37,103 nt of DNA from a virus, in UHGV virus genome UHGV-0194471. The stretch is one strand, 5' to 3'. The translations under genes and the position numbers were made by a program. Positions within the stretch are counted from its first letter, which is position 1. Every line of letters begins with the position of its first letter. Positions 1,097 to 36,883 of this stretch are shown here, piece by piece. The notes under the pieces are model-generated. The model saw only the letters and a program-made list of their open reading frames with translations, made no database searches and had not been told where the DNA came from.

Positions 1097-1497
1097 CTTC
1101 CCCTCCCGACACGTGCCAGCCATTTTTTCAGTTGTTCAATCACCTGGCTGGCCTGCTGATTGTTAAGCCACTCCAGCCGGGCGACGCCTGTCTGGCGTTG
1201 TACGAACTTATTTAACGCCGACAAACTGCCATCTCTGACCGTACCGCTGGAAGTCAGTTCCTGCCATAACGCGCGGATCATCGCAGACTGCTTATCATAG
1301 GAAGGAGGCTCTTTAGATGTGACTTTGAAGCCCTGTTTTTTCATCACAGCGAAAGCCTTAGCCAGTTGTGAGTCGCTCATTACCCGTAACGATTCACTGC
1401 CGCAGTGTGTTTTAAGTAATTGTCGATACGTAGCCTCATCCAGTCGCAGCTCTCGCCGGGCAACATGGATAACCCGCAATAATTGTGCTCTGTTCAT
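1093..1497 (-). CDS. GemA-like protein (Mu gp16 family)
   Basis: 134 aa, MNRAQLLRVIHVARRELRLDEATYRQLL... resembles Mu GemA; sits directly upstream of the mor-like gene as in Mu. Confidence 0.6.
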   Translation of the reverse strand: MNRAQLLRVIHVARRELRLDEATYRQLLKTHCGSESLRVMSDSQLAKAFAVMKKQGFKVTSKEPPSYDKQSAMIRALWQELTSSGTVRDGSLSALNKFVQRQTGVARLEWLNNQQASQVIEQLKKWLARVGRGR

Positions 1498-1551
1498 TCA
1501 TTCCTCCGTGAGGCGGTTATGACAGGCACAACCGCTGGATAATCAATGTGG

Positions 1552-1845
1552 CTACACGTCACCACATTGGCAGATCCCAACCATCCTTACGGTTAATACC
1601 GATGGCTCATTTGCGGGAGATATGCAGCTTTTATCGAGGCAGTAATCTTTGCCACGAGATCGGACAACCGCTGAATCATTATTGACGCTGGTTATTTTCC
1701 CTGTTTTTGTCGTTATTCTGATGCGAGTGTTACGGGCGCTCATAGATACTTGCTGCCAGGCAAAACTCACTTTGTCGCCAATGCGAAACGGTACTTCTTT
1801 CTCGGCATATTTCCCGCAGGCCGGGCATTTAACAAACATCATCAT
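1552..1845 (-). CDS. Small zinc-ribbon protein (CxxC...CxC), function unknown
   Basis: ORF with paired Cys motifs (KCPACG ... CQCG) in the early operon. Confidence 0.5.
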   Translation of the reverse strand: MMMFVKCPACGKYAEKEVPFRIGDKVSFAWQQVSMSARNTRIRITTKTGKITSVNNDSAVVRSRGKDYCLDKSCISPANEPSVLTVRMVGICQCGDV

Positions 1846-2107
1846 TTACTACCCCCAACCATTCAGCCAGTCGCGCCAGCTTTTTCGCTTTGCGATAATC
1901 GATTAGCTTTTCCATACCGTTCTGCCGGAACTGTTCGATCATGATTTCCACATCAGCCATTTCATCCGCCAGCACAGCTTCGTCACAGAAGCCTGTCAAA
2001 CCACGCGCGGTTGCGGCGCTGAGTTCGGCTGCTTCCTCGGCTAGCTTCGCCAGTTGTTTCTCCGGCCCCCACTTGCGTAAGGCTGCACGGTAGATAAGCG
2101 TTTTCAT
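1829..2107 (-). CDS. MazG-like nucleotide pyrophosphohydrolase domain protein
   Basis: 92 aa with EEAAELS ... DEMADVEIMIEQ pattern resembling the small all-alpha MazG/NTP-PPase fold. Confidence 0.45.
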   Translation of the reverse strand: MKTLIYRAALRKWGPEKQLAKLAEEAAELSAATARGLTGFCDEAVLADEMADVEIMIEQFRQNGMEKLIDYRKAKKLARLAEWLGVVNDDVC

Positions 2108-2313
2108 GCGCCTACCTCCGTTGCCGGGGTTAATTCCATAGTGGGAATAAAGGCGTTATAAGCCTGCTCGCAGTGCGGACAGAGCAAAATTAAATTTACG
2201 CACCACTCCTTATATTCATCAGTCTGCAATAAGCTTGCTTGTTGAAAATCCAGTTCAGTGACTTCTTTTTTGCAGTACACACATTTAATCGTCGCCATCT
2301 CACACCCCCGCAA
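2104..2313 (-). CDS. Small zinc-ribbon protein (CxxC x2), function unknown
   Basis: 69 aa with CVYCKK ... CPHCEQ; overlaps neighbouring genes in an operon-like arrangement. Confidence 0.5.
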   Translation of the reverse strand: MRGCEMATIKCVYCKKEVTELDFQQASLLQTDEYKEWCVNLILLCPHCEQAYNAFIPTMELTPATEVGA

Positions 2314-2917
2314 TATTCAGCACGACAGGCTGGTATTTATCGCTATCACCGACACGCTGATAAACCCGCACGTAACTTGTTGAGTTCACCACCTGCACCG
2401 ACTCGCCAATGGCCTCCATTGCCTTCAGCCAGCGTGGGTCGGTAATTTCATAGCGGCGCAGCGCCAGTACGCGCCCGGTGGAGATGTTGCCCTCTTTATC
2501 TTCTGCGAATGATTTCTCCACGATGACCTTCAGCTCTGGCGTGGCCTGTGCCGTCCACTCATGCAGGCACTCATCAATCAAGTTACGGGCGGCTTGTAAC
2601 CGTTCATCAAAGGCGATGTTTTCGGCAATCTGGCGCTGGATCTTGTAGCGACCATCAAATGAATGCAGGGTGATGTTGCCTTTCTTGCCTCCGGGGCGGG
2701 CATCATATTGTTCAACGGACAAATCAATAAACGCCTGTATATCGCCAAAACAGCGGTTTTTAAACTCAAGTAATTCAGCATTCATTTTCATTGCGTCGGC
2801 GACGATCTCCTTTACCAGCGCATCGCGTGCGCGGTCAATGGGCTTGATCATAGACTCGGGAACCAGACAACCTTTGGCGTCCTGCCAGTAACCTGCGGGG
2901 ATAGTTTTTTCAGTCAT
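2300..2917 (-). CDS. Conserved early-region protein of Mu-like phages (possibly DUF3164-type), function unknown
   Basis: 205-aa ORF directly downstream of the B-like gene; family name is from memory only. Confidence 0.45.
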   Translation of the reverse strand: MTEKTIPAGYWQDAKGCLVPESMIKPIDRARDALVKEIVADAMKMNAELLEFKNRCFGDIQAFIDLSVEQYDARPGGKKGNITLHSFDGRYKIQRQIAENIAFDERLQAARNLIDECLHEWTAQATPELKVIVEKSFAEDKEGNISTGRVLALRRYEITDPRWLKAMEAIGESVQVVNSTSYVRVYQRVGDSDKYQPVVLNIAGV

Positions 2918-2988
2918 AAAATAGTCTCCAGGGTGATTTCAGGGTGTGCGAAGCCTGCCGGGTTGACGGCATTTTTCTGCGACCTGAA

Positions 2989-3117
2989 TTAATTAAATAA
3001 GGCTATGAATATAAAAATCAGTGTAGTTATAGCGCTGGCCCATAATACAAAACGGTCAGCCAGCGATATCTTGCGGTATTGCATCACGTCCTTTCCGGTT
3101 AATTTGTGAAATACCAT
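2989..3117 (-). CDS. Candidate 42-aa hydrophobic peptide (not in the supplied ORF track)
   Basis: ATG at 3117 preceded by AAAGGAG 8 nt upstream; translation MVFHKLTGKDVMQYRKISLADRFVLWASAITTLIFIFIALFN has one predicted transmembrane helix; fills a 200-bp gap. Confidence 0.3.
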   Translation of the reverse strand: MVFHKLTGKDVMQYRKISLADRFVLWASAITTLIFIFIALFN

Positions 3118-3119
3118 TT

Positions 3120-4244
3120 TCACACTCCTTTAATCACATCCGCATTCACCACCGGCACGCCGATATCAGCGGCCAGATTCATTGCGGCGATAACCAGATT
3201 CCCCAGCGCCAGCGGATAAAGCAGACTGACGTCACCGCGTCGGGATGAATTACATAATCGGGCGCGGATAGCATCGGCGGTGCTATCATCCAGCACCTCG
3301 GAAACACCTTTCCCGGTACGCTGAAATTTGAACGCCAGAAACGCTTCCAGATAGTTATCCAGCGGCAGCAGTTCGACGACCTCGCAGCGCTGTACCACTT
3401 CGCGCACCTCCTGATTACGTTCAGAAAGTTTCAGCTTTAGCTCCGGCTGGCCAATCAACACCACCGACAGCAGCTTTTTAAAGCCGTCCTCCAGCTCAAA
3501 GAACCGCTTCAAATGCTTGAGCGTCGGCACCGGTAGCGAGTGCGCCTCTTCAATAACCAGACAATGTGAGAACCCGGCGCGGGCCGACTCTTTCAGCACC
3601 CGGTGCAACTGGCGGTAACGGGCCTCCTGCGAGCGTTTGACGTTCTCCAGCGGTGCGATGGTGTTGATGATGGCCTCGGCAATCGACGCCGCTTTCAGAG
3701 TTTTGCCTTTGGCGTCGTTGTCTTCCATCGCAATGATGTACGGTTCGATGAGGATAACTGGCGCGTTTTCACGGTTGATGCGATCAGCCAGGTCACGGCG
3801 TAGCGTGGTTTTCCCTGCGCCGGATTCGCCAACTACGGCGATAAATCCGCCATGTCGCGCGGTCTGATACAGTGCTTCACGCACGTAGCGGATATCTGGC
3901 GTGGTGAACACGTCGTCCGCACTCTGCATAACCTCATCGGCGAACGGGTCGCGGAACAACCCAAAATGCTTCTTCGCCGCTGGATTTAATACCTGTTTTG
4001 CCAGTAACATATTTTCGTCCTCACTGGATGATGTACCGGTGCAGGCGGTGGCCGCCGTCTGCGCCTCCTTCAGTTCAATACCTTTTTCTGCAAAAAATGT
4101 GCTGATGCGCTCCCGTAGTTCTTCTGTTTTCGGCCACAGGCCGTGATTAACCATCTGCGCGATAACCGCTGCGGAAACTCCGGTAGCCTGTGCTACTGCT
4201 GCCTGAGTGATGCCACGCTGGCGCAACTGTTGTTTAATCTGCAT
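3120..4244 (-). CDS. MuB-like transposition ATPase / target DNA activator
   Basis: N-terminal HTH, Walker A GESGAGKT and Walker B-like HCLVIEEAH; lies immediately downstream of the transposase as in Mu A-B. Confidence 0.8.
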   Translation of the reverse strand: MQIKQQLRQRGITQAAVAQATGVSAAVIAQMVNHGLWPKTEELRERISTFFAEKGIELKEAQTAATACTGTSSSEDENMLLAKQVLNPAAKKHFGLFRDPFADEVMQSADDVFTTPDIRYVREALYQTARHGGFIAVVGESGAGKTTLRRDLADRINRENAPVILIEPYIIAMEDNDAKGKTLKAASIAEAIINTIAPLENVKRSQEARYRQLHRVLKESARAGFSHCLVIEEAHSLPVPTLKHLKRFFELEDGFKKLLSVVLIGQPELKLKLSERNQEVREVVQRCEVVELLPLDNYLEAFLAFKFQRTGKGVSEVLDDSTADAIRARLCNSSRRGDVSLLYPLALGNLVIAAMNLAADIGVPVVNADVIKGV

Positions 4245-4253
4245 AACTCCCCC

Positions 4254-6008
4254 TTAACCGCCGACTACGTTCAGTTGCACTCGGGCGGTAAGCTGCTGCG
4301 CGGCGGCGTCCAGTTCTTCTTCCGCCACGCCTTCTGGCCAGCGTTTCACCAGTTCCTGATACAGTGCGACGTTCCATTCCGGCAACCGTGCTTTCAGCGC
4401 CTTCGCCGCCTCGACGTGAGTCAGACGCCGGGCTTCAACGCGTGGAGCGCGTACCGGGGAATCCTGACCACGACGCGGCAGGAACGCGGGCAGTTCGCTG
4501 TCGGTGATGGGTTTATACGGGTCAAGCCTGCCGCCGAACGGCAGCGCCTTCGCTTTACGCGCCGCAGCCGCGTCCGTCTCGTTATCTGTTCCGGTAACAA
4601 TCTGCTCAATCTGTTTAGCCGCAGTCTGCGCGGGTGTATCGGCGTGGCGCTTGTGATTCTGGCCCAGCACCGCCGCGCCTTCGGCAAAGCCGTATTCGTC
4701 CTTGCGGACTTCCTCCACCAGGTGAAAATACTCGTGGCCATCGTCACCGATGAGCACTACCTGCGCGGCATCGCTGCGCCACGGATTGCGGGTGATCATC
4801 AGTTTTTCACCCACCATCACATCTGGCACGGTGGAGACGTCGTATTCCGTACCCTGAAACGACACGCGCAGCTTCGGCGTTATCTTGCGGCTTTCCGGCG
4901 CGGCAACAGCCAGTTCGCGGCAGACCTCCACCGATGGCGCTTTGATAAGCTGCTGCGCGGTGATGGTCATCCAGACGTTACTACGCGACTTGCCGTGGCG
5001 GGTGTGAATCGCGGTGGCGTTGAAGTGCTGCCGCCACAGGCGCGCTTTGGCGTTCAGTTCCTCCAGGCTGTGAACCGGCTGGAACTTCAGCCCCGGTTCA
5101 AAGCGGCGTTCGATAATGTCGCGCGCCTTTTCCACCTGCCCGGTGGCGCGGGCGTTGTGGGCTTTATGCGCCACCACGTCAATGCCCAGCGAACGACAGA
5201 GGTTCTTCGTCATAGCGGCGGTGTTGGCCGAGCCGGGGTCGAGATACAACATATGCGGCACGCCGTGGAGCACATCCGCGCCGCCGCGCTCCTGCATGGC
5301 ATTGATGAGAACGGAACAGAGATTTTCGCCAGACTCCGCCCCCATCACGTATTCAACGTAGATCCAGCCGCTGGTATGGTCGGTCAGTTCATAGCTCCAT
5401 ACCCGGTCACTGGCGATACGTTGCAGGTTCTTCGGCTTGTTTTTGTAGAACGTCGCGCTGTCCATCACCTGTAACCCGCGCTGGCCGTTGCTGAGGTAGT
5501 ACAGCGTGCAGAGCGAGGCGTCGATTTCCCAGACGTGATTGGGGTGCAGACTGGCAAGCTCCGTCACTGGCGCGGGCTGGCTGAGTTGATCCGGGTGCAG
5601 GCCGTAGCCACGCAGCGCCCGGATGATGGTGCTTTCTGACAATGGCACCCACTCGCCGCTTTCCTCATCCAGCCGCCCGGCGTCAATCTCGCCGTTGGCG
5701 CGTAACATCTCCACGGCATCAATGACGGAATACAGGCGCTTGCCGTTCTTACGGGTGGCTTCCGTCAGCGTAGCGGAAATCATCACCGCCTCATCGCGGG
5801 TCAGCGCGGTTTTTCCGGCGTCGGTGCGGCGCTTGCGTTTATCGGTCACGGCAACCTCCTTTATTCTGCGTAACAGCGTGGCGCGGGACAGGCCAAGTTC
5901 CGCGCAGGCGGCAGTGTAGATTGCGCCGCGTGCGCCATGCCCGGCCTGCCGTGCAGCCTGAGCAACAGCAACTAAGCGTTCGGTCATGACGGCGCTCATG
6001 GTCAGCAT
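4254..6008 (-). CDS. Mu-family DDE transposase
   Basis: 584 aa with an integrase-type catalytic core (candidate DDE residues in WEIDAS, YLDPGS, QVEKARDIIERRFE); position upstream of the B-like ATPase. Confidence 0.8.
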   Translation of the reverse strand: MLTMSAVMTERLVAVAQAARQAGHGARGAIYTAACAELGLSRATLLRRIKEVAVTDKRKRRTDAGKTALTRDEAVMISATLTEATRKNGKRLYSVIDAVEMLRANGEIDAGRLDEESGEWVPLSESTIIRALRGYGLHPDQLSQPAPVTELASLHPNHVWEIDASLCTLYYLSNGQRGLQVMDSATFYKNKPKNLQRIASDRVWSYELTDHTSGWIYVEYVMGAESGENLCSVLINAMQERGGADVLHGVPHMLYLDPGSANTAAMTKNLCRSLGIDVVAHKAHNARATGQVEKARDIIERRFEPGLKFQPVHSLEELNAKARLWRQHFNATAIHTRHGKSRSNVWMTITAQQLIKAPSVEVCRELAVAAPESRKITPKLRVSFQGTEYDVSTVPDVMVGEKLMITRNPWRSDAAQVVLIGDDGHEYFHLVEEVRKDEYGFAEGAAVLGQNHKRHADTPAQTAAKQIEQIVTGTDNETDAAAARKAKALPFGGRLDPYKPITDSELPAFLPRRGQDSPVRAPRVEARRLTHVEAAKALKARLPEWNVALYQELVKRWPEGVAEEELDAAAQQLTARVQLNVVGG

Positions 6009-6301
6009 CCTTCCGGTAGTTCGGGAACTAACATCCAGTGGGTGATCTGTTTTGCCGGGTACGTTTCACTGGTGCAGTGAAACTCGCCATCAATATAGTT
6101 AGCGGTTTCCACGCCGTAGCCATCACAGACCAGCACAAGGTCATAGTCACCAGGCAGTTGTGCGTCAGTGGCTATCCACGGTGAGGCCAGCGCATCCTTA
6201 AAAGCGACTCTCAGCAGTCGGCCACCGAGGATATCGGCGTTAAAGTGGTAACTCGGCTCCTGCGGAGCCTTAGCGAAATCAATAACTAATGTGCGGATCA
6301 T
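6002..6301 (-). CDS. Hypothetical early protein
   Basis: 99-aa ORF whose stop overlaps the transposase start; no family recognised. Confidence 0.45.
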   Translation of the reverse strand: MIRTLVIDFAKAPQEPSYHFNADILGGRLLRVAFKDALASPWIATDAQLPGDYDLVLVCDGYGVETANYIDGEFHCTSETYPAKQITHWMLVPELPEGC

Positions 6302-7233
6302 GCGGCGTTCTCCTTATCGGTGGTCATCCAGTCCGGGCGTTCGATTTTAGGCGTGGGGTTTGTTACCCACTCCGGCGCGGCGTCACTGCGTGGTTCGACA
6401 GCAAGGCCAAACTCTTCACGCAGATAAACGGTGGCGCTGTCAATCTGGCATAACAGCCCGGTCATAAAGGCGTGAGGGTGCGTCTGAACCAGTGCCGAAT
6501 GATGTTGATTCAGGACGGTAAAAGCTTCGTGGAGCTTGCCGCGAATAATGGCCTCGGCTTCGAAGGCAATAGCCATGACTTCCTTGCGCAACTGCTCGTC
6601 CTCCACATCCGGGGGCGGCGGCGCGATGCGGGATTTTTTGGCAAGCTGGGTGGAGAGGTTGTCGATTTTGCTGTTCTTGTCAGCCAGAACGCGGCGCTGG
6701 GCGTCGGCGTCCTCGCGAGCTTCACGCAGGGCGGCGCGGAGTTCGCGACTGGTCATACGGTCGATATCGTCGAGGGTTAGCCCGGCAACGGTGCCGCCTT
6801 CGGTCAGGGCAGTGAGTTCGTCGTCATCTTCTGCCATTAACTCGAATAGTTTGGTTTTACCCAAATGTGCCAGCGCTGGCATATTTGATTTCAGCGCTGG
6901 AGATAAATATTTGGTTGATGCCTGCATCATCCTTACTGACGTGCGATATGGTAAGCCCAGTTCCTTTTCAATAAGTTCGATAAACTCCCCATGCGGCTCA
7001 TTCTCTTTCAGAATCACCAGGCGCTTACCCGCTTCCAGCATTGCCTCGGCGCTCTGCGACATATAAAACCGAGCCTCATGCACCACTCGGTCGCGCTCAT
7101 ACGGAAGGCCGTCGCCGAACTGCTGCATAATTTCGATGCGGTGTTCCGCCAGCGCGTTCAGGCTGACGTTCAGTTCAGTGTTCAGCGGTGCGTCCGGCAC
7201 CAGTTCAACAGGTGGTGATTTTTGACGTGCCAT
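6298..7233 (-). CDS. Hypothetical early protein (311 aa)
   Basis: Long ORF in the early operon with charged helical segments and a proline stretch; no family confidently recognised. Confidence 0.5.
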   Translation of the reverse strand: MARQKSPPVELVPDAPLNTELNVSLNALAEHRIEIMQQFGDGLPYERDRVVHEARFYMSQSAEAMLEAGKRLVILKENEPHGEFIELIEKELGLPYRTSVRMMQASTKYLSPALKSNMPALAHLGKTKLFELMAEDDDELTALTEGGTVAGLTLDDIDRMTSRELRAALREAREDADAQRRVLADKNSKIDNLSTQLAKKSRIAPPPPDVEDEQLRKEVMAIAFEAEAIIRGKLHEAFTVLNQHHSALVQTHPHAFMTGLLCQIDSATVYLREEFGLAVEPRSDAAPEWVTNPTPKIERPDWMTTDKENAA

Positions 7234-7244
7234 TAACTTGCTCC

Positions 7245-7544
7245 TTAGCGACTGCCAGCCAGCAACCGCTGATTCATTTCATTCAGCCTGTCCTGAGCGC
7301 GTGTGACTTCCGTCGCGTGGGCGTGGGCGATTTGCAGCATCGCCATACTCATGGCGAAGCGCCCATTTTCCAGCCGTTGTACCAGTCCCTCTTCGATCAG
7401 AGTGTCAGCGGCGCGGGTGATATTGGCCGGGGATTCATGCAACGCCGCCGCCAATTCGCCATTGGACAACCCAGTGAGCGAGTAGCCTTTCAGGGCTTTG
7501 AGTACGCGCAGGATACGTGCGCCGGAAGTAGAGGTGGGTTTCAT
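7245..7544 (-). CDS. Putative winged-helix DNA-binding protein
   Basis: ARILRVLKALKGYSLTGLSNGELAAALHESPANITRAADTLIEEGLVQRLENGRF resembles an IclR/MarR-type N-terminal HTH. Confidence 0.45.
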   Translation of the reverse strand: MKPTSTSGARILRVLKALKGYSLTGLSNGELAAALHESPANITRAADTLIEEGLVQRLENGRFAMSMAMLQIAHAHATEVTRAQDRLNEMNQRLLAGSR

Positions 7545-7780
7545 GCATGCATCTCCAGTGGTTGGACATGGCGGCTGATGTAGTGGTCAGAACAGGTGAT
7601 GTTGCCTGGATCGTCCGGGCCGTTCAGCCCGGCAAACTCATCAACCAGAAATACGCTATATGCGGATAATCCCTGCTGACGCGGAACGCGGCGAATAAAC
7701 GTGCCGTGGTATGGAGTTGATTGGCCAAATGAGGGCGTAATCAGTACGCGCTGGCTGGGGGTTAAATCGGTAGGTTTCAT
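7541..7780 (-). CDS. Hypothetical early protein
   Basis: 79-aa ORF overlapping its neighbour's start/stop. Confidence 0.4.
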   Translation of the reverse strand: MKPTDLTPSQRVLITPSFGQSTPYHGTFIRRVPRQQGLSAYSVFLVDEFAGLNGPDDPGNITCSDHYISRHVQPLEMHA

Positions 7781-7790
7781 TGCGCTCTCC

Positions 7791-8027
7791 TTAGTTAGGT
7801 TCGTGCAGGATGCCCGGCACGATCTCTTTGCCGATGGTGCGGGACAGCTCTTTCAGAATGCGAAACGTCAGCCGTCCACGCGGCAAATCCTGTTTACCCG
7901 CCCAGCGATCAACAGCTTGCGTAACCGTCCGGGGTTCGTAGCCGGTACTGATGGCGAACTGGCGAAAGTTGCTGCCCTGCTCAATCAGTCGCGCGTGGAT
8001 TTGGTGTTTGTTCATTAGTTTGTTCAT
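7791..8027 (-). CDS. Ner-like DNA-binding protein (early-operon regulator)
   Basis: 78 aa, resembles Mu Ner/Nlp family (…FAISTGYEPRTVTQAVDRW…); first gene of the leftward operon, divergent from the repressor; GAGGGAA precedes the ATG. Confidence 0.65.
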   Translation of the reverse strand: MNKLMNKHQIHARLIEQGSNFRQFAISTGYEPRTVTQAVDRWAGKQDLPRGRLTFRILKELSRTIGKEIVPGILHEPN

Positions 8028-8108
8028 TTGTTCCCTCTGAGCTATTATGTACTCAATTGGGTTTATTGTACGTACTCAAACGGGCAAGTCAACGACTAAT
8101 ATGCACAA
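8028..8108. promoter_or_regulatory. Divergent early/repressor promoter-operator region
   Basis: 81-bp AT-rich spacer between divergent ner-like and repressor genes with direct repeats GTACTCAA (twice) and TTGTAC. Confidence 0.5.
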
Positions 8109-8519
8109 ATGAACATAAAAGAAAGACTCAAAAAAATACTCGCTGACAAAGCGTTATCAATCACTGATGCTGCCGCACAGTGCGATATCCCATATCGTTC
8201 TCTACAAAACTATCTGCGTGGCGAGCGAGAACCAAATGCGGAGGCATTGATCTCAATAGGTACCCATTTGGGTATAAATATTGATTGGCTGCTCACCGGC
8301 AGAGGAGGAATGTATCTGTCTGAACATGCGGATGTTTTGACTGAGCAGCCGGAATACAGCCATGCCGATTTGAAGTTACTGGAATTTTTGAATCAGTTGG
8401 AACCGGATGTACGAAAGGATTTGTTACGCAGTGCTGAAGAAAAACAGCGAGTGGCCGCCCTAGAAAAAAGATTAGAGGAATTGGCTTTAGAACTCGAAAG
8501 CCTAAAACGTTCGGCGTAA
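8109..8519 (+). CDS. Putative prophage repressor, HTH XRE/cI-like
   Basis: N-terminal HTH (…LSITDAAAQCDIPYRSLQNYLRGEREPNAEALISIGTHLGINIDWLLTG) plus C-terminal coiled coil; divergent from the early operon. Confidence 0.65.
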   Translation: MNIKERLKKILADKALSITDAAAQCDIPYRSLQNYLRGEREPNAEALISIGTHLGINIDWLLTGRGGMYLSEHADVLTEQPEYSHADLKLLEFLNQLEPDVRKDLLRSAEEKQRVAALEKRLEELALELESLKRSA

Positions 8520-8557
8520 AGTGTTCTCATTAAGAACAAAACATGAAGGACTATGTT

Positions 8558-9079
8558 ATGAAACACTTTTTCTTACCTTTGGGGGTTTGTGCGCTGTTGT
8601 TGTCGGGATGTGGTGATGACGATGTTACACAGCCATCTGCATCGACAATGTTTACTGTTGAAACCGATAGTCCGGTAGTGAAGCGCGAATTGCCCTTTAT
8701 TCGCCAACAGTGTCCAGGACTGGATAAATACGCAGCAAACTTTGATAAATTTAAGGTCTACGACGACACGATGCGTCCGGTGACAACGGTGGAGTTTCAC
8801 GTCAAGAATGAGAACAGCATACCCGGTAATTACACCGCCTCTGATCATACCTGTTTCCTTTTCATCTCCAACAATACCCACGAAGTGAAGATTTCAAAAT
8901 CCGCCTGCCAGTCTGTTTGCTTCGATAAAGCGGATGTGCCTGGTGGGGATCTGGTTGTGAAACTGGATAAAGAAAGAGTTCCTATGACTGCTGATAAGAA
9001 GTCGCCGCGCGAGGGGTGCCTGATGGTTTACTCGCCAGAGCCAAACGGGGATTACTGGACGTGTCCAAGACAAGATTAA
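8558..9079 (+). CDS. Lipoprotein of unknown function
   Basis: Signal peptide with lipobox MKHFFLPLGVCALLLSGC; AAGGA precedes the ATG at 8558 (alternative start 8543); several Cys in the mature part; AT-rich. Confidence 0.6.
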   Translation: MKHFFLPLGVCALLLSGCGDDDVTQPSASTMFTVETDSPVVKRELPFIRQQCPGLDKYAANFDKFKVYDDTMRPVTTVEFHVKNENSIPGNYTASDHTCFLFISNNTHEVKISKSACQSVCFDKADVPGGDLVVKLDKERVPMTADKKSPREGCLMVYSPEPNGDYWTCPRQD

Positions 9080-9156
9080 ACATGTTGTAAACAAAACAAA
9101 AAAGCGTGCAGACAGCACGCATTTACTATCTAACTCTACTGAAGGTTTCAGATTCT

Positions 9157-10188
9157 ATGCCAGCAAATGAACCTGCAAATGCAATCGTTGTAAATCATGT
9201 GGTTATTCACCTTTTAGATAAAGAGCCGCATGGGGTGACATCCTTACAGCTTAGCCCAGCAGAGAGTGGCGTCACCGCAGCATCACAACGCTTAATAGAT
9301 GATATCTGTGGGAAATATGCAGGGCGAATGGGGAAAGGTTATGGCCATTTTGAAGATGACCCTGACAATTACCCGATGCAAACAATCGTATCAGACTATT
9401 TAGCTCAAGAGCATCCTGATGATTTTTACCGTAGCTCCTGCCGCATGATTCGTCATCTGGAATCTCGGATTCAAACAACACCACTCGCTACTGGTGGCTA
9501 TGTTCTATTCGCCCACATTACGATGAATCAACACGAGCATATTTTAGTTGCCATGTTAAGCCCCACGACGGGAACTGCGGTTAACGATGCCTTTGCTATC
9601 CAGGAAAGTGTCTACCTTGATATCGACAAGCTACGTGTGGCGGGGCGTATTGACATTACGTCCTGGCAATCAGGTGCCGAACGTTATATAAGTTTCCTGA
9701 AAGGGAGCAATGCTGTATCTGGTTACTTTAAGCAGTTCCTGGGCTGTAACGATGTTTTGATCGCCAAGCGTGAAACAGAGAAATTGCGGGATGCGTTGAA
9801 AGAGTTTGCGACTGAGCAAGGGCTTGACCCCGCACGTCGAGAGGCTTTTCTGCAAACGGCCCATGACCATTTGAAGCAACTGAGCAAAGATGGTGAGCCT
9901 GTAGATCTGACAACCTTTGTGAACGCAGTCTGGCCACAAGAACCAGAACTGCTATCGACTAAGCTGGCCAACCAAGAACTGGAACTGTCGGATGGTTTTG
10001 TCCCAGATGGACGCGTACTAAAAGGAATCATTTCCTTTAAAGGAAAGTCCAATCATTGGGAGCTAAAGTTTGATCGTGCTGGTCTTCAAGATGGTTCAAT
10101 TGAGTATAATCGTGATCAGGATGTAATCATTCTAAGGAATATTCCTGATAGCTTCAGAGAAGAGATACTGGATGAGGTTGAGGAGTGA
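9157..10188 (+). CDS. YejK/NdpA-like (NA37 family) nucleoid-associated protein homolog
   Basis: ~343 aa; central segments (GGYVLFAH…ILVAMLS…YLDIDKLRVAGRIDITSWQ…ERYISFLKG…FLGC) resemble the E. coli YejK family as recalled from memory; start placed at ATG 9157 (GAAGG upstream) rather than the track start 9106. Confidence 0.5.
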   Translation: MPANEPANAIVVNHVVIHLLDKEPHGVTSLQLSPAESGVTAASQRLIDDICGKYAGRMGKGYGHFEDDPDNYPMQTIVSDYLAQEHPDDFYRSSCRMIRHLESRIQTTPLATGGYVLFAHITMNQHEHILVAMLSPTTGTAVNDAFAIQESVYLDIDKLRVAGRIDITSWQSGAERYISFLKGSNAVSGYFKQFLGCNDVLIAKRETEKLRDALKEFATEQGLDPARREAFLQTAHDHLKQLSKDGEPVDLTTFVNAVWPQEPELLSTKLANQELELSDGFVPDGRVLKGIISFKGKSNHWELKFDRAGLQDGSIEYNRDQDVIILRNIPDSFREEILDEVEE

Positions 10189-11393
10189 GTATCAGTTTTG
10201 AGCAACTGGTGGGATTGTACAGGCAGATTACTTTCGGTAACGATATGGCCGAAGGTACGCTGGTGCTTACCCCAGAATCCTGCGAGTTGCTCAACGCTTT
10301 GCTTGAGGACACCGATACATATGGGATCTCTCTGGCACAAGGTGAAGTAGTGGCTGGCCAGCAGGTGTCGCTTTTTGTGAACGCCCCAAAGACAAAGCTA
10401 GGTCTGCTATGCCGTAATTTGGCGGCTTTGTTAAAGTCGCCAAAACACCAAAGCGAGGAACCTTCCCGCTACTACCTGATCGACAGCCAATTTTATAGTT
10501 CGGATGCGCCAACATCTGTAATTGAAAACTACCGCACTATCTTAACATTTCTGCGCCTGCTTAAAGAAAAGTCGGCATACTTTGATACCAGTGCATATGA
10601 ATGCGTTTTTTTCCGCGCCGATGTATTTAAATTACCTATACGTTACAGTGCAGAAACCGTAGAAAATCTTGATAAAACGACACTCGATGAACTCATTCAG
10701 CAGTTTTCTGACGACACACACAAAGAGCAGAAACTCTCGCTTTTAATTGAAAGCATCCAGTTAATCGGTCAGGAAACGGAAAACAATAAAGTCTTTGAGT
10801 ATGCACTGAAGAACATTGATAAATTAAAAGTTGAGTTCGATAAGGGTTATCGCCTCTTCACTTCTGGGTTCTCATACGAAAAGGTTCTGGATGAACTTAG
10901 AACCGCCAAAGTTGAAGAAATGGGACGTATCCATAAAGTCTTTTCAGATATCCAAAACCAGATACTGGGTATCCCAGTCGCAACCATTATCGTCGCGACA
11001 CAAATCAAGAAAGCAAGTGGTGATGTCTATCAAACCATTATCAATAGCGCAGTTTTTTTAGGGGCCTTTGTTTTTGCTACGTTGGTTATGTTGACTTTGT
11101 TCAACCAGTTACAGACGTTAACTGCTATCAAAGAAGAACTTCGACATAAAAAGACTCAGGTTGATAAAAAGTATGCATCAATAAAAAATGACATTGATAG
11201 TATCTTTTGCTCTGTACGTAAACGTCTTTGCCGTCAGGTTATCGCGTTCTGGTTTATTATTATGTTCCTTGTTGTCGCTATTATATCGACAGGATTAATT
11301 TACCTATACTGCACATACCCTGAAACATGGAATATCTTGGTTACAAAAGTGATGTCATGGCGGCATCACTTGAGTAATAAGCCCACTCCTTAA
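10185..11393 (+). CDS. Membrane-anchored protein of unknown function (large cytoplasmic N-domain, C-terminal TM helices)
   Basis: GTG start overlaps the upstream stop (GTGA); predicted TM segments AVFLGAFVFATLVMLTLF and VIAFWFIIMFLVVAIISTGLIYLY; markedly AT-rich. Confidence 0.55.
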   Translation: MSISFEQLVGLYRQITFGNDMAEGTLVLTPESCELLNALLEDTDTYGISLAQGEVVAGQQVSLFVNAPKTKLGLLCRNLAALLKSPKHQSEEPSRYYLIDSQFYSSDAPTSVIENYRTILTFLRLLKEKSAYFDTSAYECVFFRADVFKLPIRYSAETVENLDKTTLDELIQQFSDDTHKEQKLSLLIESIQLIGQETENNKVFEYALKNIDKLKVEFDKGYRLFTSGFSYEKVLDELRTAKVEEMGRIHKVFSDIQNQILGIPVATIIVATQIKKASGDVYQTIINSAVFLGAFVFATLVMLTLFNQLQTLTAIKEELRHKKTQVDKKYASIKNDIDSIFCSVRKRLCRQVIAFWFIIMFLVVAIISTGLIYLYCTYPETWNILVTKVMSWRHHLSNKPTP

Positions 11394-35667: not shown

Positions 35668-36441
35668 ATGAAAACATTACCCATTATTCCGTGGCCCGGC
35701 GGTAAGCGTCGTCTGGCCAAAAAGTTATTACCGTTATTTCCTGAGCACCAGTGTTATGTAGAGCCATTCTGCGGCGGTGCAGCCTTGTATTTCATGAAGG
35801 AGCCGGTTGAAGCTGAAGTCCTGAACGATATCAACGGCGAACTGGTGAATCTGTACCGTGTGGTTAAAAATCATCTTGAAGAGTTTGTGCGCCAGTTCAA
35901 GTGGGCGTTGAGCAGCAGGCAGATTTTTGAATGGTCGAAAATGACCATCCCGGAGACGCTAACTGATATTCAGCGTGCAGCGCGGTTTTATTATCTCCAG
36001 AAGCAATCATTCGGAGGGAAAGTGGAATCACAGACGTATGGAACGGCGACCACTTCTGCACCACGGCTTAATCTGCTAAGGCTGGAAGAGGAGTTGAGCG
36101 CCGCCCATTTGCGGCTATCACGCACGTTTGTAGAACATTTACCGTGGCGTACCTGCATTGAGAAGTATGATCGCCCGCACACACTGTTCTATTGCGATCC
36201 CCCGTATTGGGGAACGGAGGGCTACGGTGTTGAATTTGGACTGGAGCAGTACACCCAACTTGCAGAGTTGGCCAGAACGATAAAAGGCAGGATGTTGATC
36301 AGTGTGAACGATATCCCGGAGATGCGTGAAACCTTTGCGGACTTGTCGATTGATACGGTAGATATTCGCTATACGTTGAGCGGTGGGCCTAATGCTAATC
36401 GCTCGAAAGTCAGCCGTGAGCTGGTCATTCGTAACTGGTAA
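35668..36441 (+). CDS. dam: DNA N6-adenine methyltransferase (Dam-like)
   Basis: FCGGAA (AdoMet-binding motif I-like) and DPPY catalytic motif; 257 aa; last gene before the prophage right end. Confidence 0.8.
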   Translation: MKTLPIIPWPGGKRRLAKKLLPLFPEHQCYVEPFCGGAALYFMKEPVEAEVLNDINGELVNLYRVVKNHLEEFVRQFKWALSSRQIFEWSKMTIPETLTDIQRAARFYYLQKQSFGGKVESQTYGTATTSAPRLNLLRLEEELSAAHLRLSRTFVEHLPWRTCIEKYDRPHTLFYCDPPYWGTEGYGVEFGLEQYTQLAELARTIKGRMLISVNDIPEMRETFADLSIDTVDIRYTLSGGPNANRSKVSRELVIRNW

Positions 36442-36525
36442 AGTGGAATTCTTTTGCAATAGGTGAAAAAAGTCGCAGCGCGATTTATCTCGCAGATTCA
36501 GGCGAATTTATCGCGCGCGGCTTTA
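36442..36525. repeat. Right-end terminal repeats, candidate transposase-binding sites
   Basis: Reverse complement contains GCGATAAATTCGC and GAGATAAATCGCG, matching the GATAAA motifs at the left end at the same offset from the terminus. Confidence 0.4.
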
Positions 36526-36883
36526 TTTTCAGCACCTGTAATAAGCGTGCGGTGTGTTTGGGCGTATAAAGCAGCTGATTAATACAAATTCGCACACGCG
36601 CTTCTATGCCCTGCGAAATAGTATCGATACTGCGTTTAATGGTATGAAAATCATTCAGCAGGTCGGTAGCTTTGCGGAAAAAATAACGCCCGGACTCCGT
36701 TAACTCAATGCTGCGGGTACTGCGAGTGAACAGCACCACATCCAGCCCCGTCTCCATACGTTTAATGGTGTAGCTAATGGCGGAAGTGGTTAAACCCAAC
36801 TCTTCTGCGGCTTTACTGAAGCTGCCAAAACGCGCAGCGGTAGTAAATGCCAACAGATTCTCTTCGGTAAAAATTGAGTTCAT
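36485..36883 (-). pseudogene. 5' portion of host LysR-family regulator gene (HTH domain), fused to prophage-end sequence
   Basis: N-terminal LysR HTH (…FSKAAEELGLTTSAISYTIKRMETGLDVVLFTR…); the host-derived reading frame ends at the junction near 36526 and the last 13 codons (IKPRAINSPESAR) are read from prophage DNA. Confidence 0.7.
36526..36531. repeat. Right copy of target-site duplication (TTTTCA)
   Basis: Identical to 565..570; host LysR sequence resumes here. Confidence 0.7.

Follow-up and report, generated by a model that had tools for sequence, protein, structure and literature searches.

The window analysed here, a stretch of 37,103 nucleotides corresponding to the virus genome UHGV-0194471, is a nearly complete Mu-like prophage of Escherichia coli, and its early operon carries four genes between a small ner-like helix-turn-helix (HTH) gene and the transposase gene. 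A first-pass annotation had regarded all four as candidates for lineage-specific regulation or anti-defence functions. Comparison with related loci showed, at the sequence level, that two of them, a winged-helix (wHTH) gene coding for 99 amino acids (aa; positions 7245-7544) and a 311-aa DUF3102 gene (6298-7233), are a conserved pair within a four-gene core that also contains the genes of the transposase (Tnp or TnpA) and of its partner ATPase (B or TnpB). The other two, orf79 (7541-7780, 79 aa), which occupies the slot between the ner-like and wHTH genes, and a DUF551 gene (6002-6301, 99 aa), located between the DUF3102 gene and the transposase gene, were shown by the same comparison to be independent insertions into otherwise tight operon junctions. 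The minimal operon that emerged from these alignments consists of the genes for the ner-like HTH, wHTH, DUF3102, TnpA and TnpB proteins. Lineage specificity, as first proposed, was thus retained for orf79 and the DUF551 gene, which are gained and lost independently and are more diverged, but not for the wHTH and DUF3102 genes, which are present together in 80 of 82 loci.

All four open reading frames (ORFs) were found on the minus strand with precisely the lengths and coordinates that had been annotated, and they were confirmed as real genes, beyond chance, because of their ribosome-binding sites, their tight junctions and the existence of both verbatim and diverged copies. The Shine-Dalgarno sequence TAAGGAG precedes orf79, the DUF3102 gene and the DUF551 gene, and GGAG precedes the wHTH gene. 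The junctions of the block range from -4 to +11 bp, the start codon of the wHTH gene overlapping the stop codon of orf79 (ATGA) and 11 bp separating the wHTH gene from the DUF3102 gene. The four proteins are present verbatim in public E. coli records (about 200-230 contigs each), and for each of the four ORFs there are diverged homologues with intact reading frames.

Co-transcription of the block with the transposition genes, which had been claimed at first pass, is plausible, since a putative promoter lies upstream and no convincing terminator was found inside the four-gene block; direct evidence by RNA sequencing is confined to the homologous pE operon of phage Fc02, which is transcribed from ner through the early genes after induction (PMC9936078). 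The candidate early promoter of the window (Pe-like, TTGACT-16-TACAAT, 8065-8092, minus strand), with 10 matches to the 12 consensus positions, lies in the 81-bp gap between the ner-like gene (7791-8027, minus strand, 78 aa), which is the first gene of the early operon, and the divergent cI-type repressor gene (8109-8519, plus strand; HTH_3 and Phage_CI_repr matches). It is the only sigma-70-like site that is sensibly placed, upstream of the ner-like gene, and because such sites occur in the region at the number expected by chance, the case for the promoter is its position. A terminator-like hairpin at 6229-6210, within the DUF551 gene, was dismissed after counting four such sites in the region versus 6.9 expected from shuffled sequence.

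The conserved wHTH and DUF3102 pair

The comparison across related prophages that the first-pass annotation had recommended was carried out on 82 loci with a DUF3102 ORF (78 from a one-genome-per-species scan, together with the E. coli and phage loci L001-L005) from Enterobacterales, Burkholderiales, Neisseriales, Rhodocyclales, Cellvibrionales and Pseudomonas, and it separated core genes (wHTH, DUF3102) from variable ones (orf79, DUF551). A profile of the wHTH protein detected its gene in 80 of these loci, adjacent to the DUF3102 gene in at least 70 of them, and of the two loci without a match, one is a contig edge and the other a decayed Sodalis copy. Of 75 loci, 68 had the transposase gene adjoining the DUF3102 gene, most often at a distance of 3 bp. 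A survey of 50,697 phage records found the wHTH gene in 27, which are only B3-like and BcepMu-like phages and enterobacterial relatives, and it always stood beside a DUF3102 gene. The orthologous pairs are gp12/gp10 of BcepMu, gp42/gp41 of phiE255, ORF14/ORF13 of B3, gp16/gp15 of JBD25 and gp14/gp13 of Fc02, and the same pair also occurs in phages KP12, Bhz63 and Bise. In the annotated phages the block has the order wHTH protein of about 100 aa, DUF3102-type protein of about 300-325 aa, transposase and ATPase. This conservation, and the synteny beside the transposase gene, argue that the wHTH and DUF3102 genes are not lineage-specific cargo.

The wHTH protein of the window shares 63-67% identity with ORF14 of B3 and 36-38% with gp12 of BcepMu and gp42 of phiE255, and the 311-aa protein can be aligned over its full length with gp10 of BcepMu, gp41 of phiE255 and ORF13 of B3. 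The median pairwise identities were 43% for wHTH, 47% for DUF3102, 54% for Tnp and 55% for B. When the covariation of these identities was expressed as Spearman coefficients, the highest value corresponded to Tnp-B (0.78), followed by wHTH-DUF3102 (0.66) and wHTH-Tnp (0.40). The pair is about as conserved as the transposase and the ATPase across beta- and gammaproteobacterial relatives, which makes it a candidate accessory factor in Tn552-like replicative transposition or in its control. The early proposal would have fallen had all four been core genes with already assigned transposition-accessory functions, but only two belong to the core, and a function has been assigned to none of the four.

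The winged-helix call on the 99-aa protein was borne out by matches above the cut-offs to Pfam MarR (32.0 bits versus 24.6) and HTH_IclR (28.1 bits versus 22) and by a match to phrog_1368 (E 8e-40), and a search of its profile against the PDB returned a MarR-family regulator (E 5.7e-7). It is a minimal winged helix with one C-terminal helix and a pI of 10. The MarR and IclR matches span 38-49 residues and cover the HTH only; no match to the IclR effector domain was found in the protein, and its 99 residues do not accommodate the full-length architecture of MarR (about 140-150 aa, with dimerisation helices at both termini) or of IclR, with its C-terminal effector-binding domain. Because of this short length and the HTH-only matches, the wHTH protein is, as judged from its sequence, one that resembles the MarR and IclR families and not a canonical member of either. 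PADLOC searches with the four proteins gave nothing beyond generic HTH matches of the wHTH protein (best E 2e-4), and NCBIfam returned nothing useful for any of the four.

The 311-aa protein matches Pfam DUF3102 (PF11300) along residues 64-171 with 25.0 bits, just above the cut-off of 24.4, and 44 of 46 homologues match the same family. A structural model built from a 46-sequence alignment is all-helical (mean pLDDT, the per-residue confidence score of the model, 77), with a disordered N-terminal tail followed by helices; residues 47-160 or thereabouts include an HTH-like helix pair, which corresponds to the conserved LGLxxRTAxRMMQAS segment, and three long helices are predicted at 162-201, 208-248 and 254-275. 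A fold search of BFVD with this model retrieved other DUF3102 proteins only. Foldseek found nothing significant, its highest-probability matches being ParB and Spo0J; no ParBc or related Pfam match was obtained in the 46 homologues, even at E values up to 1, and the PDB sequence search with the DUF3102 profile gave nothing below E 0.6. The model therefore hints weakly at a ParB/KorB-like DNA-binding region, as a resemblance and a lead rather than as family membership. In contrast to ParB, Spo0J and KorB, and to the KorA-KorB pair of IncP plasmids, the predicted protein has no counterpart of the N-terminal CTPase (ParB/Srx) domain of ParB.

BcepMu and B3 as reference phages

The observation that had drawn attention to the four genes was that in Mu the ner gene is followed directly by A. 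This is correct for Mu (ner, 1099-1326; A, 1328-3319), but Mu turned out to be a misleading yardstick for this prophage, in which the transposase (581 or 584 aa) shows no BLASTP similarity to MuA (663 aa), and interposed genes are normal in phages of the BcepMu/B3 type. Judged by its sequence relatives, the transposase (4254-6008, minus strand) is of the BcepMu/B3 (Tn552-like) DDE type: it matches phrog_310 (E 4e-132) over profile positions 127-687 of 696, is 68% identical to gp09 of BcepMu and 59% identical to ORF12 of B3, and is also related to gp40 of phiE255, its score against Pfam rve being 30.1 bits, under the cut-off of 32.6. The lack of similarity to MuA makes Mu irrelevant as a reference here. 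The ORF as listed from 6008 overlaps the stop codon of the DUF551 gene, and translation probably starts at the ATG at 5999 (581 aa), because this codon has a GGAAGGA Shine-Dalgarno sequence 7 nt upstream and the relatives are annotated with 581 aa. The adjacent gene (3120-4244, minus strand) codes for the AAA+ (AAA_22/ExeA-like) transposition ATPase, the counterpart of MuB, with matches to AAA_22 (E 2e-20) and to phrog_296, 'DNA transposition protein' (E 2.5e-88), and with 54-60% identity to its equivalents in B3, BcepMu and phiE255.

The early region shares with that of Mu a divergent repressor and early promoter, a small HTH protein as first gene product, a DDE transposase with an AAA+ target-DNA activator, and distal GemA and Mor genes. 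It differs in that Mu passes directly from ner to A and has neither a DUF3102 nor a wHTH gene, and in that MuA carries its own N-terminal winged-helix enhancer-binding domain, whereas the wHTH protein of the window is free-standing. The possibility that the latter is a detached counterpart of the winged helix of MuA was checked by profile alignment, but the hhalign probability was 0.2 and the idea, lacking sequence support, was left as functional speculation only.

In contrast, the arrangement in BcepMu (gp16, gp13, gp12, gp11, gp10, gp09 TnpA and gp08) and phiE255 (gp45 to gp39) resembles that of the window in gene order, since both phages have an HTH gene, variable small genes, a wHTH gene, a DUF3102 gene, an rve transposase gene and an ExeA-like ATPase gene, as well as a divergent cI-type repressor. 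Their proteins share 68% (Tnp), 59-60% (B) and 41-57% (DUF3102) identity with those of the window. They differ from it in having a gp13-like gene of 159-172 aa in place of orf79 and no gene between the DUF3102 and transposase genes, and BcepMu has in addition the 70-aa gp11 between the wHTH and DUF3102 genes. Phage B3 (ORF17 to ORF11) and the beetreviruses Fc02, Ps56, JBD25 and PM105 likewise show the module of ner-like, wHTH, DUF3102, A and B genes and a slot after ner with accessory genes; these accessory genes are unrelated to those of the window, there is no DUF551 insertion, and the DUF3102-position proteins of Fc02 and JBD25 share only the C-terminal part with that of the window in tblastn comparisons.

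The name ner-like given to the first gene proved appropriate by position but not by family. No Pfam match, including Ner/HTH_35, was found for this protein at E values up to 0.1. It matches phrog_8503 (E 1.4e-38), has a pI of 10.6, and scores 21.6 bits, under the cut-off of 34, against TIGR04111 (BcepMu_gp16); a hidden Markov model (HMM) made from the gp16-like ORFs of related loci matches it with E 2.4e-7. By these profile matches, the ner-like gene encodes a distant HTH protein of the BcepMu gp16 family.

On this sequence evidence, the locus is an early operon of the usual BcepMu/B3 type to which two cassettes have been added, and an ordinary one for its phage family. The prophage should accordingly be read against BcepMu and B3 and not against Mu. 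In those phages the wHTH and DUF3102 genes belong to the regular gene complement, and nothing in the locus would surprise specialists in transposable phages.

Accessory genes at two operon junctions

The two remaining genes were found in all four combinations of presence and absence. Both are present in the window and in a prophage of Salmonella Llandoff; E. coli OkiPb01694 has only orf79, E. fergusonii has only the DUF551 gene, and KP12 and most other relatives have neither. Their proteins are also more diverged than their neighbours, because in near-identical prophages, where the neighbouring proteins are 82-100% identical, the orf79 product shares 67-70% identity and the DUF551 protein 61-71%. 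These two observations together mark orf79 and the DUF551 gene as accessory.

The orf79 product had no match in Pfam, PHROG, NCBIfam or PADLOC, nor in the 50,697 phage records. It has 44 representative clusters among 1.84 billion proteins and a conserved motif, TFxRRxP...FxGLNGPDDxG..SDY, and is therefore best described, from these searches, as a small uncatalogued family outside Pfam and the PHROGs. Homologues were found in 4 of 83 related loci (one E. coli, two Pectobacterium and one Brenneria), always directly 5' of the wHTH gene, and the gene is missing from the otherwise near-identical prophage of E. fergusonii. The slot that it occupies is in general variable: most Enterobacterales have no gene there, and betaproteobacteria and Pseudomonas have a gp13-like one of 160-190 aa. 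A shared C-terminal HVQPLE was a lead for regarding orf79 as a truncated gp13-like gene, but HMM and hhalign comparisons were negative, and this likeness probably reflects the GGAG ribosome-binding site of the following gene, which is embedded there. A single-protein scan for distant orf79 loci returned close relatives only, the alignments being too variable for a pattern search. Weak matches in several stretches of two large proteins, P0304 (1177 aa) and P0319 (3036 aa), lie within Big_6 and DUF5801/Big_9 repeats and were rejected as probably compositional, through the G-x-D-D-x-G motif; a small beta-domain common to orf79 and these proteins may nonetheless exist.

The DUF551 gene stands at the more unusual place. 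The junction between the DUF3102 gene and the transposase gene measures 289 bp in the window, filled by this gene, versus the modal gap of 3 bp in the family, and because this slot is almost never occupied the insertion is unusual for the family; no homologue was found in the 83 related loci that were first examined. The gene lies at the same junction in the prophages of Salmonella Llandoff and E. fergusonii, and among 5.8 billion proteins its subfamily forms only 7 clusters, which come exclusively from Escherichia or Salmonella. The match of its product to PF04448 (residues 42-97) reaches 21.6 bits, slightly below the cut-off of 22, a 71%-identical homologue (P0271) has a precomputed PF04448 match, and phrog_6925 is matched with E 4.4e-24. 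The protein is acidic (pI 4.5, and 4.05 for its DUF551 part). Within the subfamily, residues 1-41 are almost invariant and the DUF551 part (42-99) is variable, an arrangement that would fit a constant N-terminal interface on the phage side and a variable target-binding module. The AlphaFold2 model, built with 8 homologues, had a mean pLDDT of 44 and was unusable. In the literature DUF551 appears only as a portable domain without known function, as in the C-terminal domain of the V2 variant of Ea22 and in YfdS of CPS-53 (PMC10834534, PMC4776307). Like these proteins, that of the window has a small acidic C-terminal module and belongs to an early region of a temperate enterobacterial phage (PMC10834534, PMC4776307), but it differs from them in having its own 41-residue N-terminal part and in being encoded inside a transposition operon and not in a lambdoid exo-xis region.

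Neither orf79 nor the DUF551 gene matched the defence families catalogued in PADLOC. In phages Fc02 and Ps56, the gene following ner (gene 10) confers superinfection exclusion (PMC9936078), which by analogy makes a host-interaction role of the accessory genes plausible. Homology of orf79 to gene 10 of Fc02 was considered and rejected (hhalign probability 0.1). The two junctions are precise hot spots for the uptake of small early-expressed genes and a reasonable place to seek exclusion or anti-defence functions.

Possible roles of the four genes and other features of the prophage

The explanation that we favour, and regard as fairly probable as a whole, combines a conserved wHTH/DUF3102 pair that aids or regulates early transcription or transposition with two accessory genes directed at the host or at other phages. 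Upon induction, transcription from Pe would run through the entire block before reaching A and B. The basic wHTH protein would then bind phage DNA, most likely as a dimer, and the DUF3102 protein would probably act with it as a DNA-binding or bridging adaptor, so that the pair could regulate or assist either the transcription of early genes or the transposition-replication step that TnpA and TnpB perform. The accessory proteins may target the host or competing phages, in superinfection exclusion, host takeover or anti-defence, and the position of their genes would ensure that they are produced before transposition starts. The constancy of the pair and the 3-bp junction with the transposase gene, as opposed to the mosaic immunity region, point, although not strongly, to a link with transposition rather than with the immunity switch.

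Several observations weigh against this explanation. The module is itself mosaic, BcepMu being closer to the window in Tnp (68% versus 37% for wHTH) and B3 in wHTH (67% versus 59% for Tnp), which argues against a strict co-evolution of the pair with the transposase. Transposases of this type do not in general require the pair, since Tn552 itself transposes with only a transposase and an ATPase. The evidence for exclusion or anti-defence is the position of the accessory genes, orf79 not being homologous to gene 10 of Fc02, and their greater divergence could equally result from relaxed constraint. In the literature none of the four genes has a function assigned by experiment, nor is one assigned to DUF3102, to gp10 and gp12 of BcepMu or to ORF13 and ORF14 of B3; most ORFs of the pE operon are also unassigned in the description of Fc02 (PMC9936078).

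A bolder version of the favoured explanation, possible but not one that we would expect to hold, makes the wHTH and DUF3102 proteins obligatory third and fourth components of the transposition machine, which would bind and bridge DNA and mark the phage ends or an internal enhancer, or else couple TnpA/TnpB to the host replication machinery, and would in either case replace in trans the N-terminal winged helix of MuA; orf79 and the DUF551 gene would in addition encode new host-takeover or anti-defence proteins, supplied ahead of transposition.

Alternatively, the pair might be a module of transcription control without a direct role in transposition, for instance a second repressor or anti-repressor acting in the lysis-lysogeny switch or in the early-to-middle timing, and its placement would reflect operon order only. 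Winged-helix proteins of the MarR/IclR type are typically transcription factors and transposases of the Tn552 type work without such partners, but the immunity region is mosaic while the pair is constant: homologues of the repressor of the window were found in 26 ORFs and its ner type in 5 of 83 loci, versus the wHTH gene in 80 of 82. The junction with the transposase gene is, moreover, near-invariant, with 3 bp or an overlap, which suggests translational coupling and a stoichiometric co-production with TnpA. For these reasons we consider transcription control as the sole role of the pair unlikely. It is less likely still that the DUF3102 protein is an acidic helical scaffold or adaptor that does not bind DNA and, for example, recruits a host factor or modulates TnpA/TnpB; its HTH-like region is indeed acidic, and the likeness to ParB, which is part of the case for DNA binding, would then be a generic match between helical bundles. 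Finally, a case for regarding the whole set of four as lineage-specific cargo with regulatory or anti-defence functions might be made from the contact between ner and A in Mu, from the lack of an assigned function for any of them and from the lineage-specific character of two, but this reading is scarcely credible given that the wHTH and DUF3102 genes occur together in 80 of 82 loci from several beta- and gammaproteobacterial orders, beside the transposase gene, and that Mu is not the relevant reference.

Two sets of repeats lie in or across the gap between the repressor and the ner-like gene. A 16-nt direct repeat is present in two copies (TATGTACTCAATTGGG and TACGTACTCAAACGGG, at 8046-8061 and 8069-8084, 23 bp apart) and overlaps the -10 element of the candidate Pe, and a perfect 11-nt inverted repeat (TGTTCATTTGT/ACAAATGAACA, at 8021-8031 and 8105-8115) spans both divergent start codons; from their location they are candidate operators. 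On the plus strand, upstream of the repressor gene and in its orientation, a 105-aa ORF (7701-8018) runs antisense to the ner-like gene and to the start of orf79 and looks like antisense noise. At the equivalent position Fc02 has the forward-strand ORFs olg1 and olg2, which are co-transcribed with the repressor gene and of which olg1 brings about exclusion (PMC9936078).

The distal end of the early operon contains the genes for DUF3164 (2300-2917), GemA (1093-1497) and Mor (716-1123), and a Dam methylase gene (35668-36441) is located at the opposite end of the prophage. The distal early operon also includes a gene for a 92-aa MazG/PRA-PH-like nucleoside triphosphate pyrophosphohydrolase (1829-2107, minus strand), annotated in the same way in an E. 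coli relative, whose product could act on host nucleotide pools or signalling. No Rfam family was detected at the gathering threshold anywhere in the window. The prophage interrupts a host gene of the LysR family (minus strand), which is split into an HTH_1-containing N-terminal part at 36485-36883 and a second part on the left flank (1-580), and the phage ends are likely near 581 (TGAGATAAAC...) and 36494 (...TTTATCTCGCA).

Between the repressor and the holin genes there is a three-gene cassette of low GC content (43-47%; 8543-11393, plus strand) that encodes a 178-aa lipoprotein-like ORF, a 360-aa YejK/NdpA-like nucleoid-associated protein and a 402-aa membrane protein. PADLOC v2 gave no match for this cassette; the 360-aa and 402-aa proteins match the NCBIfam models DS1_1_antiphage (66 bits) and DS1_2_antiphage (74.5 bits), respectively, far under the cut-offs. 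The same cassette is present in the prophages of E. coli OkiPb01694 and E. fergusonii, and it is probably, from its sequence matches, a diverged DS-1-like defence moron carried by prophages.

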